DNA of 64,000 nucleotides from an uncultured Spirochaetota bacterium (GTDB lineage Bacteria > Spirochaetota > Spirochaetia > SZUA-6 > Fen-1364), in NCBI GenBank assembly GCA_963781885.1, contig CAWAHW010000001.1, positions 256,001 through 320,000 on the forward strand. Reading direction: 5' to 3'. Position numbers and translations under genes: made by a program. The notes below the pieces were generated by a model. It was not told where the DNA came from and ran no database searches. It was given only the letters and a program-made list of their open reading frames with translations. This document shows, one piece after another, positions 21,976 through 28,271 of this stretch. How positions within the stretch are numbered: position 1 is the first letter of the stretch; every line of letters starts with the position of its first letter.

Positions 21976-22051
21976 GCGCGGTGGACCAGGGCATGGGCGG
22001 GCACAAGCGTAGGCGCGGCGCGTCCAGTTGTCAACAACGGGCGCTTCTCGG

Positions 22052-23704
22052 CAGCAATTCGCATTATGGCCAAAGACGTTTGGTTGGCATGAGGGAATCT
22101 ATGGCGTATATGCGCCCAGGTGGGAATCCGGGATTAGGACTTTGGTGGAGGAGAAAGTTTGAATGGAGGTCCGCCGGAGTTGTGAGGCGCGGAAGGGGAC
22201 TTACAGCAAGCACCCGTCCAAGGTTGGCCACGCAGGAGGGAGGGTGGTTCTGTAGGGGTGTTATGAAGGCAGGCAGGATCGGTGAACTATCCGTCTGGGT
22301 CAGGCAGGTGCAGCCCATTCACCATGAACTGCATCAGAGCCACCCAACTGTCAAAGCACAGATACTGGGTCAGTGTGGCAACGTGTTGAAAAAAGGTATC
22401 CCGACGCGGCAGTGTCGAGCGAAGCAGGGCACAGCGGCTATCCATGAGCTGTAAAAGGGTGTGAAAAAGAAAGGCAATCACATTCAGCGATAGCAGTGTC
22501 TGCGACAGATACTGCTGGCCATGGCCGAAATTGTGCTCGAAGTGGTATCCCTTCGTCTTCAGTGTGTTGAAGTTCTCGTTCTCAACCTTCCAGCGGCATC
22601 GACCCGCGTTCACCACCTCCACCACCGTCTGTTCGCTGATGGGGTGGCTGGTGACCCAGCAGTTGCGATAAGTGACCTTGCCCTTGTCGTCGAGAATCTG
22701 CAATTCCACCCATGAGACCACCGGGCTATCCTTCTCGGCGGTCAGGCTGACATCGTTGATCCAGCGGTAGTGGTAGTGACGGTGATCCTTACCTGTCCAG
22801 GCGCTGCGTTGCAGGGTGTGCACCCCGCCCAGTTTCTCCAAGCCCTCAATCTCCTCAAACAAGTGCTTGTGCATGACCGGCTTGGCAACAAAGATGAAAT
22901 CCAGCTCCTGCTGCACGGCGCGAGTGATGATGGGGGTTCGCGAATACAGGTCATCTCCCAGCAGCGTCACTCCTAAGGGGCTCAATCGCGCAGCGTAGCG
23001 CTCGATCCAGCGCAGGGCCGCTTGAAACTCGCAGTCCTGCCGATCATGGCCATCCTGGGGACTGAGAAACTCCGGCTGCAGCGCCACCACATGGGCCTGT
23101 TGGGGACTGACCACCGCGGGAAGCAGCACGGAGTGTGTGTAGGTGACTCGTCCGTCACGGTGATTGCTTACCATGCAGGAGGGACAGTGGATGGATTCCG
23201 ACAGGAAATACCCTGTGCCGTCCAAGGCCACCAGAAGCGAGTTGGCAAAGGACCTCATCGGTTGCATAAGCCCGCGCTGCTGCATCAGATCAAAACACTT
23301 CTCGTAGACTGCATTCAACAGTGAGGGATCCACGGGGTCCAACAAGGCTCTGATCTGGTTGTCCGAGGGAATCTGCTGGACCCCAAAAAGGCTCCGTGCG
23401 TTGTTCTTACCCTGCTGTTGCTGCATCAACTCTTGGAAGGCCAGAAAGGAGGGACTCTGACAGAAGAACACTCCGAAAGCCCCGCGCGTCACATCTTCAA
23501 GGGAGAACTGCGTATTCTTGCCCGTTCGTCGATCTGGAAACCTCTCGACGCATCCCATGAGAAGGGACATCAGGGCCTCAAACGTCTCCCCTCCTGACAT
23601 TCTGAGGGCAAGTGTACGGCATGCAACTCATAGCGAATACTAGACGGGCGTTCCCGGTAATCTACGGCATTGCGTCCCGTACAGACCCATAGTTAGAATT
23701 GCTG
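22052..23704 (-). mobile_element. ISNCY-type insertion sequence (about 1.65 kb)
   Basis: Terminal inverted repeats CAGCAATTC (22052) and GAATTGCTG (23696-23704); flanking direct repeat GCTTCTCGG at 22043-22051 and 23705-23713; lower GC than the flanks. Confidence 0.88.
22287..23600 (-). CDS. DDE transposase (ISNCY / IS4-like)
   Basis: ALDGTGY...HCPSC, QDCE, LGDDLY and RCRWKVENENFNTLKTKGYHFEHNFGHG. Confidence 0.9.
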   Translation of the reverse strand: MSGGETFEALMSLLMGCVERFPDRRTGKNTQFSLEDVTRGAFGVFFCQSPSFLAFQELMQQQQGKNNARSLFGVQQIPSDNQIRALLDPVDPSLLNAVYEKCFDLMQQRGLMQPMRSFANSLLVALDGTGYFLSESIHCPSCMVSNHRDGRVTYTHSVLLPAVVSPQQAHVVALQPEFLSPQDGHDRQDCEFQAALRWIERYAARLSPLGVTLLGDDLYSRTPIITRAVQQELDFIFVAKPVMHKHLFEEIEGLEKLGGVHTLQRSAWTGKDHRHYHYRWINDVSLTAEKDSPVVSWVELQILDDKGKVTYRNCWVTSHPISEQTVVEVVNAGRCRWKVENENFNTLKTKGYHFEHNFGHGQQYLSQTLLSLNVIAFLFHTLLQLMDSRCALLRSTLPRRDTFFQHVATLTQYLCFDSWVALMQFMVNGLHLPDPDG

Positions 23705-23814
23705 GCTTCTCGGGCAGCAGTTCTGATATGATGTGCCCCCGTCAAGCTCTAAAAGCCTCCTTTTTTCTTTAGAACTCCTTCTGAACATCGAGGCCAACCC
23801 GAAGAGATGGAGAA

Positions 23815-23960
23815 GGGCATAACCGACGATCGACCAGTCTGATATGCGTGGATTGGTTACCGCAGGCCAATGTGATCGTCAGGAGCTTGCCTCCGTCTCA
23901 TTACCAGGATCAGACCATAGTCTGCCTGCAGAACCGCTCGAGGATTCTCCGTTCGCCACG
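23815..23960 (-). ncRNA. Putative bridge RNA / seekRNA of the IS110 element
   Basis: Two stem-closed internal loops (GGAG/CTCC with inner CAGAC/GTCTG; GACGATC/GATCGTC) whose strands match the target site and the element-end junction. Boundaries are approximate. Confidence 0.75.
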
Positions 23961-24007
23961 AACCTTCCCCATCCGTCCCGGTTGCCTCGATTGCATACGC
24001 AGCCTCC

Positions 24008-25102
24008 TCAAGCCACCCGATCAACCATCGCGCCCCACAGGAACCCCGAGAGCTCTCGCGCCACCGCCGTCACCACGGTCTGAGAAGCTTTGCCGCGAAA
24101 AAGCAGACGCAGAAATTTCTTGTTTAGCCGCCTGCACGCACGGTTGGCATAGCTGACCAAGGATGGAGAAAGACCCTCGCGTCGTTTCATCAACCGAGTG
24201 CTACTGGGATGGTAGCTGCGGTATTGCCAGGCGGCCTCCACCAGAAGTTTGCGCAGGTGGGAATTACCCGCCTTTGTGATTCCTCCCAAGCGCCTCTTGT
24301 TTCCGCTGGATCGCTCGGAGGGCACCAACCCCAAAAACGCCATGAATTGATCCGCACCTGCAAAGCGCCGAAAGTCCCCGATCTCCGAAACAAGCGACAA
24401 GGCGATCAGCGTCTCCACGCCCTTGAACGCCTTCAGCTTGGCTACAGGTTCGGCATAGCTTTTACGTGCCGCGATCTCTTCGATGCCCGCCTTGATCCGC
24501 CGACACTTCTCCTCCAGCTCGTCGACTTGGCAGCGGTACTCGGTGAGAGTCAACTGCTCCAGCGGATCCTCCAACTCAAGAGCCTGCAACCATGCTCGAT
24601 GCGGCTGCGTCCATGTGGCTCCTTGTTCATAACGTATCCGCCTCCGCAGAAGAAAACCCAGCACGCGCTGCTTGGCCTTGCGCAGATCGGACTTCATGTC
24701 CTCCAGCATTCGTAGATAGTCGCGAACCGCTTCGTCTTCCCGCGTGGGTACATGAACGGCACTCACATCCCCGCTCCGAAGTGCGCGAGCAAGCATCACA
24801 GCGTCCCTTCTATCGGTCTTTATGCGATCTCCCGGACGATGTGGAATCTGAGACGGAGCCAGCACCGCACACGGCACACCCAGTTCCGTCAATTGTCGAT
24901 ACAGGGAATACCCTAGACATCCCGCCTCGTAGCATGTCACCAGGTCCCCCGCGGACTGGAGCTTCTTGAAATAGGCCTGGATTACGCTCTTTTCATTGCG
25001 AATCACCGTCTCGGCCCTCGGCTTCTGATCGCGCCCGCTCAGGATCGCTATGGCGATCTTTTCTTTGTCGACGTCCATGCCAACGTAATGTACAATACCC
25101 AT
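24008..25102 (-). CDS. IS110-family DEDD recombinase/transposase
   Basis: VGMDVDK, CYEAG, IKTDRRDA, GLVPSERSSG and ITKAGN; ATG 25102 follows an AAGGGGG RBS. Confidence 0.92.
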   Translation of the reverse strand: MGIVHYVGMDVDKEKIAIAILSGRDQKPRAETVIRNEKSVIQAYFKKLQSAGDLVTCYEAGCLGYSLYRQLTELGVPCAVLAPSQIPHRPGDRIKTDRRDAVMLARALRSGDVSAVHVPTREDEAVRDYLRMLEDMKSDLRKAKQRVLGFLLRRRIRYEQGATWTQPHRAWLQALELEDPLEQLTLTEYRCQVDELEEKCRRIKAGIEEIAARKSYAEPVAKLKAFKGVETLIALSLVSEIGDFRRFAGADQFMAFLGLVPSERSSGNKRRLGGITKAGNSHLRKLLVEAAWQYRSYHPSSTRLMKRREGLSPSLVSYANRACRRLNKKFLRLLFRGKASQTVVTAVARELSGFLWGAMVDRVA

Positions 25103-25350
25103 GACTGCCCCCTTGTGCGTTGTTTGTGGCGTGCCGCATCGAGACGCCAATCTCATGATACGGCCGATCCACGTTGTAGCAACCACCTGGGGGCACTTCA
25201 TATTGTCTCATTTTGGACCATCCGGAGCTGACGACCGGGCATTTTTGCTCAAAAATGGCTTATTACCATAGGACAAAATGAGAACTGCATCGTTCGGTTG
25301 CCAAACTGAGAATTGCTGGCTTCTCGGGGGCATCGTGTATACTTGGTTCC

Positions 25351-25836
25351 GTGAAACCGAAAAGGATGGACCCGCGGCGCACGAAGCTGGAGAAGGAGCT
25401 GCGCGACGCGGTCAAGGAAGTCGACGAGCAGGGGCTGCTCTTCCTGCTCCGCCAGGCCCAGGTGCTCATCCACAACGCGCGCGTGGAGCAGGTTGCCGCA
25501 CGGACGGAAAAGAACGCACCGGCGGGAAAGGCCGTCCGGACAAAGCCGGACAGGGCACAGAAACCCGTGTCCATCGAAGACGCCAAGGACGGAAAGGCCA
25601 TCTTCCTCAACCTTGGGAAGGCGCGCAGCGTCCTCACCCCTGAGGAGATGAAGAGGATCGTGCGGATCTGCTACGCGGCGGAGACCAAGAGCGAGGCGCT
25701 GCGCCGGCTCTTCACCGTGCTCGCCCGGGAGAGAAAGGACATCCTCGCCGATGCTTTTGTCGGAAACCCCGACAATCCGCTCCTGGAAGAGCTGTTTCGC
25801 GTCGTGCGCGCCACCTATCACCTGAAGGACCGGTAG
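25351..25836 (+). CDS. Hypothetical protein
   Basis: 161-aa ORF with genome-typical codon usage; start may be ATG 25366. Confidence 0.65.
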   Translation: MKPKRMDPRRTKLEKELRDAVKEVDEQGLLFLLRQAQVLIHNARVEQVAARTEKNAPAGKAVRTKPDRAQKPVSIEDAKDGKAIFLNLGKARSVLTPEEMKRIVRICYAAETKSEALRRLFTVLARERKDILADAFVGNPDNPLLEELFRVVRATYHLKDR

Positions 25837-25880
25837 GCGCGCTTGCATCGTGCGGGCTTTCCTTTTATCGTACACCCATC

Positions 25881-26426
25881 GTGACCGGCACGGATGGGGC
25901 GGGCAAGTATTTCCTCTCCTACGAGCATATTCACCTGAGCGTGCGGGCGCTCGCCGCGAAAATCACCGCCTCCGGTTTCGATCCCGACCTTATCGTGGCA
26001 ATCGGAACCGGCGGATTCATCCCGGCGCGAATTCTTAAAACCTATATCAAGAAGCCCATTCTCACCGTGGGCATTTCCTATTACGGACCCGACAATCTGC
26101 CGGCAAAAAGCCCCCGCACGATACAGTGGATCGACGAGGTGGAGAAGAAGCTCGCGGGCAAAAACGTGCTCCTTGTCGACGAGGTGGACGATTCCCGCGT
26201 CACGCTGGAATACTGCCTGCGCGAGCTTCTCCTGCACCGGCCCGCGGAGATCGCGGTCGCGGTGCTCCACAACAAGAAAAAGGAAAAGAAGGGCAGGATA
26301 CCCGCCGAGGTCCGCCGCTACTTTGCCGGCGAGGAGCTCGACGACAGGTGGATCTGCTACCCCTGGGACGCGACGGACATCACGGCGCACGAGAAGATAT
26401 CCCGGTCCGGCATCGTGCAGTCGTAG
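25881..26426 (+). CDS. Purine (xanthine/hypoxanthine-type) phosphoribosyltransferase
   Basis: VAIGTGGFIPARIL, PRPP-binding motif VLLVDEVDDSRVTL, and WICYPWD. Confidence 0.85.
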   Translation: MTGTDGAGKYFLSYEHIHLSVRALAAKITASGFDPDLIVAIGTGGFIPARILKTYIKKPILTVGISYYGPDNLPAKSPRTIQWIDEVEKKLAGKNVLLVDEVDDSRVTLEYCLRELLLHRPAEIAVAVLHNKKKEKKGRIPAEVRRYFAGEELDDRWICYPWDATDITAHEKISRSGIVQS

Positions 26427-26448
26427 CAAAGCGCGAAGGGTGGGCCGC

Positions 26449-28271
26449 ATGGGCATGGAGAGTTTCCGCCACTTCGATGCGCGCGCGCTGGTGGACGTCG
26501 CCATGGGGCGTCGCGCCGCGGACATCGTGCTCCATGACGGCCGCTGGGTCTGCGTGCAATCCGGGGAAATCGTGCCCCATACGGACGTGGCGATCGTGGA
26601 GGGCCGCATCGCGTACGTGGGCAGCGACGCGCGCCATTGCATCGGGCCGGAAACGACGCTGATCGAGGCAGGCGGCCGGCACCTCGTCCGGGGCTCCTGG
26701 ACGGCCACATGCACGTGGAGTCGGGCATGCTCACGGTCAGCGAGTTCGTCCGGGCCGTGCTGCCGCATGGAACGACCGGCATGTTCGTCGACCCCCACGA
26801 GATTGCGAATGTCCTGGGGCTGCGCGGGGTGCGCTACATGGTGGACGAAGCCGGCCGACAGCCCATTCACGTCTTCGTGCAGGTGCCAAGCTGCGTGCCC
26901 TCGGCGCCCGGCCTGGAAACTCCCGGCGCGGTGATCGGTCCCGCGGACGTGGAGGAAGCCCTGACCTGGCCGGGCATCATCGGGCTGGGGGAGATGATGA
27001 ACTTTCCCGGGGTCATCGCGGGAAACGACAAGTTGCACGCGGAGATGGCGGCGACGCGCCGCGCGGAAAAGGTGATCGGCGGTCACTATGCATCGCCCGA
27101 CCTGGGAAATGCCTTCCACGCCTACGCGGCGGCCGGGGCCCAGGACGATCACGAGGGGACCCGGCCGGAAGACGCCCTGGCGCGCATCCGGCAGGGCATG
27201 CACGTCATGCTCCGCTATGGATCGGCGTGGCACGACGTGGCAGCCCAGATCCCCGTCATCCGGCAGCAGGGGCTCTCCGCGCGGCATTTCATCCTCTGTA
27301 CGGATGACTCCCACTCCCAGACCCTCGTGAGCGAGGGCCACATGGACAGGGTCCTGCGGCATGCCATCTCCCAGGGCCTTCCGCCCATGGACGCCGTGCA
27401 AATGGCCACTCTCAATACCGCCGAACATTTCGGTGTGGCGCGCGACATGGGGCAGATCGCACCCGGCCGATTCGCCGACGTGCTCCTGGTGCCCGACCTG
27501 GCTGACTTCCATGCGGAGCTCGTGATCGCGCGCGGGCGGGTCGCCGCCGAAAAGGGGAGCCTGCTGCTGGAGCTTCCCACCGTCGCTGCCCCAAGCTGGG
27601 CGCGGGACTCCGTGCACCTCGGCCGGGTCGTCATGCCGTCCGATTTCCGTCTGGACGGTCGTCGATTCGGCGCAACGGCGTCCGCGCACGTCATCGGCGT
27701 GATCGAGAACCAGGCGCCCACCCGGCATCTGCACGTGGACGTGCCCGTGCAGGATGGCGAGGTGCGGGCCGATCCGTCGCGCGACCTTGCCAAAATCGCG
27801 CTCCTGGACAGGCATCACGCCTCGGGCGCGATGCAGGTCGCCTTCGTGCAGGGATTCGGGTTCACGGCCCGGTGCGCCGTGGCGACGACCGTGGCCCACG
27901 ACTGCCACCAGATGATCGTCGTGGGCACCGACGATGCGGACATGGCGACCGCGGCAAACGAGCTGGCCGCCTGCAAGGGCGGGCAGGTCGTCATCCGGGA
28001 CGGAGAAGTGATCGGCAAGGTGAGCCTCCCGGTCGCCGGCCTCATGTCCGATCAACCGGCGCCCGTCGTGGCGCAGGCCGCGGCTTCCGTTCTGCAAGGA
28101 TTCGCAGCGTGCGGCTGCCGGCTTTCCAACCCCAACATGCAGCTGAGTCTCCTGGGACTCGTCGTGATCCCCGAGCTCCGGCTCTCCGACAAGGGCCTGA
28201 TCGACGTGCGTCGCTTCGAGATCATCCCGCTGCTGGAGCAGGCAGGCGATGCGCGCGCGCAGGCAGACTGA
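26449..28271 (+). CDS. ade: Adenine deaminase with an apparent frameshift near 26690
   Basis: N-terminus (VAMGRRAADIV...) lies in ORF 26173+ and the rest (PGLLDGHMHVES, DPHEIANV, EMMN, DHE, CTDD, VAHDCH) in ORF 26637+; GTCCGGGG appears to lack one C. Confidence 0.88.

Follow-up and report, generated by a model that had tools for sequence, protein, structure and literature searches.

Insertion sequences (IS) whose target is the end of another transposon have been recognised before: IS4321 and IS5075 reportedly insert in the inverted repeats at the ends of Tn21-family transposons, the hosts being large Tn21-family (Tn3-type) plasmid transposons with 38-bp repeats. Here, we describe an IS1111-group element of the IS110 family in a 64,000-nucleotide stretch of DNA from an uncultured Spirochaetota bacterium (the window), where it sits in the left end of a miniature inverted-repeat transposable element (MITE). 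As with IS4321 and IS5075, the target is the terminal repeat of another transposon, but the host here is a chromosomal MITE of ~120 bp with 9-bp duplications. We consider it very probable that a structured RNA belonging to the element guides its insertion into the MITE left end. The sequence-level basis of this reading is observed and consists of the family membership of the element, its site specificity, a conserved RNA structure, and covariation between guides and flanks.

A MITE has also been described as the host of the founding member of the group. In Coxiella burnetii, 20 of the 21 copies of IS1111 lie in the MITE QMITE2, in a palindromic part of it (Wachter et al. 2018, PMC5896051). In both cases, as far as the QMITE2 account goes, the MITEs were in place before the insertions and provide a timeline. 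However, the site in QMITE2 is an internal GTAG palindrome, whereas the site here is the terminal inverted repeat, and a matching internal copy is unused. Other targets reported for IS1111-family elements are repetitive extragenic palindromic (REP) and attC sequences (PMC11187229).

The machinery of the element resembles that of ISEc11, ISKpn4, ISPst6, and ISPa11 (PMC11187229) and of ISPpu10 (PMC11208160) in the features that these reports describe. In all of them, the DEDD transposase carries a C-terminal PF02371 domain and the GL-P----SG motif, and they share subterminal repeats with 7/3-bp extensions, a long downstream non-coding region, insertion in one orientation, and duplication of the core only. 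Likewise, the guide order is that described for IS1111 seekRNAs (PMC11187229), in which the top-strand guide lies 5' of the bottom-strand guide and the two overlap on a two-base core. Unlike these five elements, the element here has other guides and another target and is known from sequence alone. The bridge RNA of IS621, as described by Durrant et al. (2024, PMC11208160) and Hiraizumi et al. (2024), similarly has two internal loops with 5' and 3' segments on opposite strands and a CT core, and when the element is read on the + strand of the window, both the arrangement and the CT core are those of IS621. However, the RNA of IS621 lies upstream of the gene, in the left end, and its subterminal repeats measure 2-3 bp, whereas here the RNA lies downstream, and the order in which its segments match the DNA strands is reversed relative to the gene. 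Also unlike IS621, minimum free energy (MFE) folding predicts a long outer helix that would enclose both loop domains here.

The insertion sequence and its target site

The insertion sequence lies at 23725-25208 of the window on the minus strand and measures 1,484 bp when the CT/AG core is counted once; the other copy of the core lies at 23723-23724. An earlier reading made from the letters of the stretch (the sequence-only reading) had located it correctly at 23723-25208, but that span contains both CT copies, and the element proper is therefore 1,484 bp. The left junction reads CAGCAGTT-CT followed by GATATG (CT at 23723-24), and the right junction reads CATATTGT-CT followed by CATTTTGG (CT at 25207-08). 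The features of the element and of the interrupted MITE are as follows.

24008-25102, minus strand: transposase gene, 364 amino acids from the ATG at 25102; the open frame extends to 25201 (397 amino acids).
23728-23740: right subterminal inverted repeat, ATGATGTGCCCCC on the + strand; 3 bp lie outside it (23725-23727), then the core.
25189-25201: left subterminal inverted repeat, GGGGGCACTTCAT on the + strand; 5 bp lie outside it (25202-25206), then the core at 25207-25208.
23715-23724, + strand: outer 10 bp of the MITE left terminal inverted repeat, CAGCAGTTCT, severed from the remaining MITE by the insertion.
25209-25318, + strand: remaining MITE, which starts CATTTTGG and ends with the right terminal repeat CTGAGAATTGCTG, as delimited by intact MITEs and 9-bp duplications.
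25274-25288, + strand: internal inverted copy of the target, CAAAATGAGAACTGC, inside the remaining MITE.

The alignment of relatives begins at the ATG at 25102, and ~100 nt of the element lie upstream of it. The transposase matches PF01548, the N-terminal DEDD (RuvC-like) domain, with 50.0 bits against a cut-off of 29, and PF02371, the C-terminal domain, with 78.6 bits against 21.3. In addition, it matches the NCBIfam equivalog NF033542, "IS110 family RNA-guided transposase", with 236.8 bits against a cut-off of 140, and it is 40-60% identical to the nearest relatives found. The stretch GLVPSERSSG in its translation corresponds to the GL-P----S(T)G motif of IS1111 transposases (PMC11187229), with S265, S266, and G267 invariant in nine relatives. 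From the stop codon (24008-24010), a non-coding tail of 283 nt runs to the right end. The subterminal repeats (12-13 bp), ATGAAGTGCCCC and ATGATGTGCCCC, are paired at 11 of 12 positions, and the terminal extensions are AGACAAT on the left (7 bp counting the core) and ATC on the right (3 bp). IS1111 elements are described as having subterminal repeats of ~11-13 bp, extensions of 7 or 6 bp on the left and 3 bp on the right, and a downstream non-coding region (PMC11187229). The 7/3-bp geometry placed the left end in 54 of 57 relatives.

A BLAST search of the element against the window's own genome returned seven full-length copies with 99.87-100% identity and two partial copies, one adjoining a masked stretch and one internally deleted. 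The census is possibly short, as the genome holds 16,000 masked (N) bases and one IS copy abuts them at C4:160001. All copies have one orientation and show no duplication beyond the core, and the empty site has a single CT. The left flanks of all eight assessable copies end in CAGCAGTT and are unrelated to each other further upstream, while all nine right flanks begin CATTTTG and are alignable for ~110 bases onward. The common site of every assessable copy is thus CAGCAGTT-CT-CATTTTG. The sequence-only reading had reconstructed this target and had named identical guides in unrelated targets as an observation that would speak against RNA guidance. When the flanks of the other copies were inspected, 9 of 9 shared one site, and the reconstructed target was found uninterrupted as CAGCAGTTCTCATTTTGG at C1:386452. 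The element is intact and recently active.

A deletion derivative of 884 bp lies in G000 at C2:775982-776865 (locus L027). What it retains is the right end, the entire region of the bridge RNA, and the transposase gene's 3' part; the final 5 bases of the left end follow without a gap, and then the MITE. The derivative could be an orphan source of the RNA.

The MITE was surveyed by reading uninterrupted copies in context and by a genome-wide scan for the 18-mer that allowed up to 4 mismatches and gave 43 matches. It is a short non-coding element of 119-122 bp present in 13 copies, nine of which carry the IS. Its ends are CAGCAGTTCTCA and CAGCAATTCTCA. The left end reads CAGCAGTTCTCATTTTGG, the right end reads CAGCAATTCTCAG(T/A)TGG on the other strand, and an internal inverted copy reads ATGCAGTTCTCATTTTGT, also on the other strand. 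Target duplications of 9-10 bp are readable in most copies. The target of the IS is the left terminal inverted repeat of this MITE, and the MITE continues rightwards from the insertion, on the side that faces away from the DDE gene. The sequence-only reading had taken the target to be the end of another transposon. That it is a terminal repeat holds, but its bearer is the MITE and not the adjacent DDE transposon with the 437-amino-acid frame. Among the four empty MITEs, one has the perfect site (C1:386452), two start with AAGCAG (one of them also with TTTTAG), and one has a 1-base deletion in the site.

Occupancy follows this terminal site closely. The perfect 18-bp terminal site is occupied in 9 of 10 cases, compared with 0 of 13 for the internal inverted copy of the MITE, 0 of 13 for the MITE right end, 0 of 6 for the DDE transposon ends, 0 of 2 for the AAGCAG variants, and 0 of 1 for the 1-nt deletion variant. 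No occupied sequence in this genome departs from the perfect 18-bp terminal site, and all 35 near-cognate sites, which are 1-4 bases off, are unused.

The structured RNA and its proposed guide segments

Relatives were collected from the 11 genomes with such a transposase among 61 related ones and from the best 80 of 590 confirmed stretches that came from scanning one genome for each species. By eye, their 3' regions share a scaffold in which the lower stem has two parts and leads into a segment of 8-9 nt, an upper hairpin, and another segment; a domain of like layout comes next. A covariance model had been suggested as a check in the sequence-only reading, and such a model (R1) was built from 51 RNAs, with the window element and its closest relative left out. 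R1 gives a single match in the window, at 23951-23824 on the minus strand, with 74.9 bits, an E value of 5e-14, and full model length. It matches 92 of the 96 loci of relatives, 51 of them training rows, and gives no match in L009, L010, L016, or L022. The segments of the RNA are as follows.

23824-23951, minus strand: core of the predicted bridge RNA (seekRNA), with the target-binding loop domain and then the putative donor-binding loop domain, placed by covariance model R1.
23930-23938, minus strand: 5' target guide AGCGGUUCU, predicted to pair with AGAACTGCT on the transposase-sense strand over the core and 7 flank bases, with one rG:dT wobble.
23895-23902, minus strand: 3' target guide AAUGAG (23902-23897), followed by AC, the first two bases of the element's left end, as read in the sequence.
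23866-23871, minus strand: candidate left donor guide AUUGGC in the family register, matching 5 of 6 bases of the left end plus the core G.
23837-23846, minus strand: candidate right donor guide CAUAUCAG(AC), identical in the same sense to the right end CATATCAG plus the first two left-end bases.

Covariation was scored on a plain MAFFT alignment of 53 distinct RNAs against six hand-written helices. Pairing was present in 84.1% of the cells, compared with 77.2% when partners were shuffled and 30-47% when partners were slid by 1-3 columns. Two-sided changes were seen in 16 of 28 pairs and amounted to 91 cells, against 20.7 in the shuffles, none of which reached 91 (0 of 500). The opposite strands of one internal loop hold both target segments, and the second loop likewise holds both donor segments. 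The sequence-only reading had seen here an element of the IS110 family and IS1111 group that carries a bispecific RNA in the non-coding 3' end, and the protein domains, the two-loop layout, and the guide-flank covariation presented below agree with that description. Its motifs were also correctly placed: AGCGGTTCT is the reverse complement of + 23930-23938, AATGAG that of 23897-23902, CATATCAGAC that of 23837-23846, and CACATTGGCC that of 23865-23874.

Unusual layouts occur in two loci of relatives. L088 has two tandem R1 matches (2373-2509 and 2545-2673), and L101 has a duplicated gene 3' end and RNA start; these may be tandem or nested partial copies.

In the target loop, AGCGGUUCU matches AGCAGTTCT at 8 of 9 positions, the exception being an rG opposite a dT, while AAUGAG-AC matches AATGAG-AC at 8 of 8 (6 of 6 for AAUGAG alone). 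The guide for the transposase-sense (top) strand is placed 5' of the other guide. The likelihood of a chance match was assessed by shuffling the non-coding tail 20,000 times with dinucleotides preserved. In 442 shuffles, there was a 9-mer that differed from AGCAGTTCT at no more than one position, 17 of these also had AATGAG within the following 80 nt, and none contained CATATCAG in addition.

The flanks of relatives provide further evidence for the target guides. Right ends were located by the downstream recurrence of the 7-mer that follows the donor-domain upper stem, which succeeded in 59 of 92 loci, 57 of them with enough flank. The other 33 loci, some of which are cut contigs, lie outside the flank tests. 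In a test that makes no use of structure, the reverse complement of the core plus 7 flank bases best-matched the element's own RNA at 6.98 of 9 positions, compared with 5.64 ± 0.10 for permuted pairs (51 distinct RNAs; 0 of 2,000 permutations). The core positions of the 5' guide match at 88-90% in cognate and non-cognate pairs alike, whereas the five flank positions next to the core match at 75-88% in cognate and 25-29% in non-cognate pairs (51 relatives), and positions 8 and beyond are at background (27%). Summed over positions 3-8, the match is 4.12 of 6 for cognate pairs and 1.58 ± 0.16 for permuted ones (0 of 5,000). Similarly, left-flank positions -1, -2, and -3 of the 3' guide match at 94, 88, and 62%, against 54, 35, and 25% in non-cognate pairs (48 loci), and the four flank positions together give 2.73 of 4, against 1.43 ± 0.12 when permuted (0 of 5,000). 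A handshake-like match is also present, as the base after the core copy of the 3' guide equals the element's first base in 100% of cases versus 66%, and the next base agrees in 67% versus 51%. The core itself is nearly constant, with 53 of 54 left flanks ending in AG. From these matches, we place the family-wide paired target span at 5 + 2 + 3 bases. The target pairing predicted in the window extends beyond this span. Natural reprogramming of the guides is implied by the covariation.

Four relatives, L006 (same genus), L075 (Spirochaetota), L089 (Terriglobia), and L044 (Actinomycetes), have a near-identical right flank, GAGCCTGTC(G/C)G(A/G), and the left flank ends in CCTAG in L006, L075, and L089, where the left end was located. 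This suggests a widely conserved target. Separately, a second target-like 9-mer within one mismatch, AGGAGTTCT, was noted in the A/U-rich tail hairpin of the window element (23779-23771, minus strand). It was judged to be probably a chance match because relatives show no excess of second copies: 6 of 53 loci have one (in three, an artefact of a very short guide string), compared with 7.5% for non-cognate guides.

In the donor loop, CAUAUCAGAC equals the element's right end plus the core and the first two left-end bases at 10 of 10 positions. An exact recurrence of the right donor 7-mer at the right end is seen in 59 of 92 loci, against ~2% expected by chance for one 7-mer in 360 nt; as the 59 were selected by that match, the agreement is a sign of consistency and not an unbiased test of covariation. 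In 12 of them, loop and end both carry a variant of the 7-mer, with six variants in all. For the left donor, only an offset of -2 is consistent across relatives, and it sets six bases against the core G and the first five left-end bases. In the window, AUUGGC thus faces ATTGTC with 5 of 6 matches. The sequence-only reading had put forward a 7/10 match for the left donor. Its location stands, but its register does not, as AUUGGC (23871-23866) with 5 of 6 fits better.

Alternative explanations and the unused internal copy

The shared site of the nine copies could have another origin, namely that a MITE already carrying the IS was copied around by the DDE transposase, in which case the IS hitchhiked and the nine copies were not each RNA-guided. 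The MITE and the IS always occur in one arrangement, and the 9-bp duplications of the MITE resemble those of the DDE transposon, three copies of which are in the genome. However, identity between the MITE halves next to the nine IS copies is only 62-94.5% (median 74.8%, 36 pairs), whereas the IS copies are at least 99.87% identical. This indicates that the MITEs had diverged and were old before the IS entered each of them, in separate insertions. In addition, two genomes of the same genus, G005 and G019, have 11 and 6 uninterrupted perfect 18-bp sites and no transposase match at E 1e-30 or better, although G005 is just 69% complete and absence there is not established. Judged from these comparisons, the MITE predates the IS and is more widely distributed in the genus. 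We therefore regard copying of a loaded MITE as highly improbable. The sequence-only reading had proposed that the element would disable or hitchhike on its host; the hitchhiking half lacks support given these identities.

It could also be argued that the protein alone recognises the site and that the segments in the tail are coincidence or remnants of a captured target. The window by itself is compatible with this, single-sequence folding is non-significant, and the second 9-mer AGGAGTTCT lies in the tail without a structural role. Set against it are the position-specific covariation of both loop strands with their own flanks, which no permutation equalled, the failure of all 20,000 shuffles to reproduce the three segments, and the rate of second target-like segments among relatives, which is near that for non-cognate guides. 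Moreover, experiments on relatives, as presented in PMC11187229 and PMC11208160, favour RNA guidance, and recognition by the protein alone is scarcely credible. An explanation that keeps the RNA but shortens it deserves more weight and is still unlikely: the active RNA would be a short seekRNA with the target loop alone, the second loop would be a protein-binding scaffold, and the protein would read the ends via the subterminal repeats. Siddiquee et al. (PMC11187229) describe seekRNAs of 70-100 nt with two target matches only and stress the subterminal repeats. The left donor segment is indeed weak, matching at 5 of 6 positions in the window and showing little excess across the family. Because the ends are so highly conserved, covariation is a test of low power, and 33 of 92 loci lack an exact match between right donor and right end. 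However, the right donor 7-mer is exact at the right end in the other 59 loci, with loop and end changed together in the 12 loci that carry the six variants, and the second loop has the geometry of the first and lies within covarying stems. For 93% of IS1111 elements, Durrant et al. (PMC11208160) predicted a bridge RNA with two loops in the right end.

Several observations weigh against an RNA-guided element with two loops, which remains the reading that we prefer. A search of Rfam with 22000-27000 on both strands gave no match at E up to 1, and single-sequence folding is unremarkable (z -1.59, with 7 of 100 shuffles folding equally well). The 5' target guide has one non-Watson-Crick position, a G opposite a T, against every observed target. 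The left donor guide has one mismatch, and its family-wide signal is weak (excess of 0.90 summed over positions); the small excess over non-cognate pairs is explained by the conservation of left ends across the family. Among the 33 loci without exact right-donor recurrence, L084, L094, L105, and L050 have by eye a right end of ATATCAA where the guide reads ATATCAG. Contigs of four DNA runs over 23500-25430 showed neither joints nor a circle junction, nor was an empty site present at this locus; one contig of run X2 contains an uninterrupted MITE left end, at another locus.

The unused internal copy of the target also weighs against pairing as the complete explanation. The 15-bp GCAGTTCTCATTTTG occurs twice per MITE, once terminally and once internally in inverted orientation, and 9 of 13 terminal copies are occupied compared with 0 of 13 internal copies (Fisher p = 0.0005). 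Over the guide span of 5 + 2 + 3, the unused internal copy is identical to the used terminal site, so that pairing over this span does not separate the two. Upstream of the shared 15 bases, the terminal site has CA and the internal copy has AT (AC in one copy), and the first base of the element's 9-nt guide matches the base closest to the shared 15-mer. In the closest relative, L002, guide and target likewise agree at 9 of 9 positions, but across the 11 relatives with a position 9, that position is at background. IS621 is reported to have a low mismatch tolerance (Durrant et al., PMC11208160), and we conjecture that the wobble together with just one distal mismatch may suffice to spare the internal copy.

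A further possible influence is the structure of the target DNA. For ISPpu10, "structure-gated" targeting has been described, in which a hairpin in the flank raises efficiency and specificity beyond pairing is argued (bioRxiv 10.64898/2026.03.19.712850). As in that report, the target here lies in one arm of an inverted repeat, so that the flank on the transposase-start side can form a hairpin. However, unlike the gate of ISPpu10, the hairpin context here is symmetrical between the arm that is used and the one that is not. Hairpin gating was rejected as a sufficient cause because the terminal and internal copies are the arms of one inverted repeat, which a hairpin gate alone cannot separate. 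It is conceivable, if rather doubtful, that specificity exceeds base pairing, either through one or two extra bases that this subgroup would read with a longer 5' guide or through a feature of the transposon terminus that gates insertion, and that the element is a hyperparasite.

Neighbouring transposon, proposed mechanism, and meaning

The gene beside the interrupted MITE belongs to a transposon of its own.

22052-23704, minus strand: full-length DDE transposon with a 437-amino-acid open reading frame at 22287-23600 and the ends CAGCAATTCGCATTATGG and CAGCAATTCTAACTATGG.

The three genome copies of this transposon have 9-bp duplications and ends that begin CAGCAATTC. It is likely the autonomous partner of the MITE, a plausible role because its ends begin in this MITE-like manner and its duplications are 9 bp. 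Its ends differ from the target of the IS at 3-4 of 18 positions, and none of the six is occupied. The sequence-only reading had labelled its termini ISNCY-type, a name that could not be retained. In NCBIfam, only IS4_1 was matched (E 0.0026, 16.9 bits against a cut-off of 115), the Pfam matches PF01609 and PF13808 are sub-threshold, and among the DDE homologues (120 listed plus seven clusters) the sole informative name is "Transposase IS4-like domain". An ISNCY identity thus finds no support in Pfam, NCBIfam, homologues, or clusters, where the only matches are sub-threshold and of IS4 type.

Two observations concern the history of these elements. The 9-bp GCTTCTCGG occurs three times, at 22043-22051 before the DDE transposon, at 23705-23713 between the transposon and the MITE (with an extra G at 23714), and at 25319-25327 after the MITE. 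This looks like two successive insertions, of the transposon and of the MITE, in the same 9-bp target, each duplicating it. In addition, G000 has other short inverted-repeat elements with MITE-like ends (GAGCGCTTCTCATTTTGC ... GCAAAATGAGAAGCGCTG) at C3:41820-41913 and C7:502397, which may be a second MITE family with related termini.

For the insertion itself, we propose that the DEDD transposase works with a structured two-loop RNA that would be transcribed from the 283-nt region 3' of the gene (core 23951-23824, minus strand) and would be bound by the protein. In the target loop, the 5' strand AGCGGUUCU would pair with one strand of the target DNA and the 3' strand AAUGAG with the other, the two overlapping on the CT/AG core. 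Together, both target guides would specify AGCAGTT-CT-CATT, which are bases 2-14 of the MITE left terminal inverted repeat. In the donor loop, AUUGGC and CAUAUCAG would pair likewise with the element's own abutted ends. The circularised element would then insert by recombination at the core, in one orientation and without duplication beyond the core. The insertion would split the outer 10 bp of the MITE terminal repeat from the remainder, and each insertion probably immobilises its MITE.

A circular intermediate and a junction promoter are presumed in this scheme. In 53 of 57 loci of relatives, the right end contains a TTGAC-like hexamer located 8-32 nt inward. In the window it reads TTGACG (about 23741-23746, 17 nt before the core end), and a -10-like hexamer in the left end would face it after circle formation. 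The two hexamers are consistent with the junction promoter described for these families.

The target had not been recognised as described in the sequence-only reading. The kind of target was already known, both from IS4321 and IS5075 and from IS1111 in QMITE2, whereas for the particular target we found no report in the literature, which was searched by topic and not by sequence; the source data of Fig. 8 of Siddiquee et al. and Supplementary Table 5/Data 2 of Durrant et al. might list a relative. The element is a natural example of a mechanism already described, with nothing new in principle, and adds one further candidate recombinase-RNA pair. It presents one transposon consuming the ends of another and offers a natural data set of nine independent insertions, one perfect empty site, 35 unused near-cognate sites, and ~50 relatives with readable guides and flanks. 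For this branch of IS1111, these data define the effective guide length, which takes in the core together with 5 flank bases on one side and, again with the core, 3 on the other. If specificity does extend beyond pairing, the element would be a hyperparasite that has nearly saturated one MITE family in this genome, with 9 of 10 perfect ends occupied.

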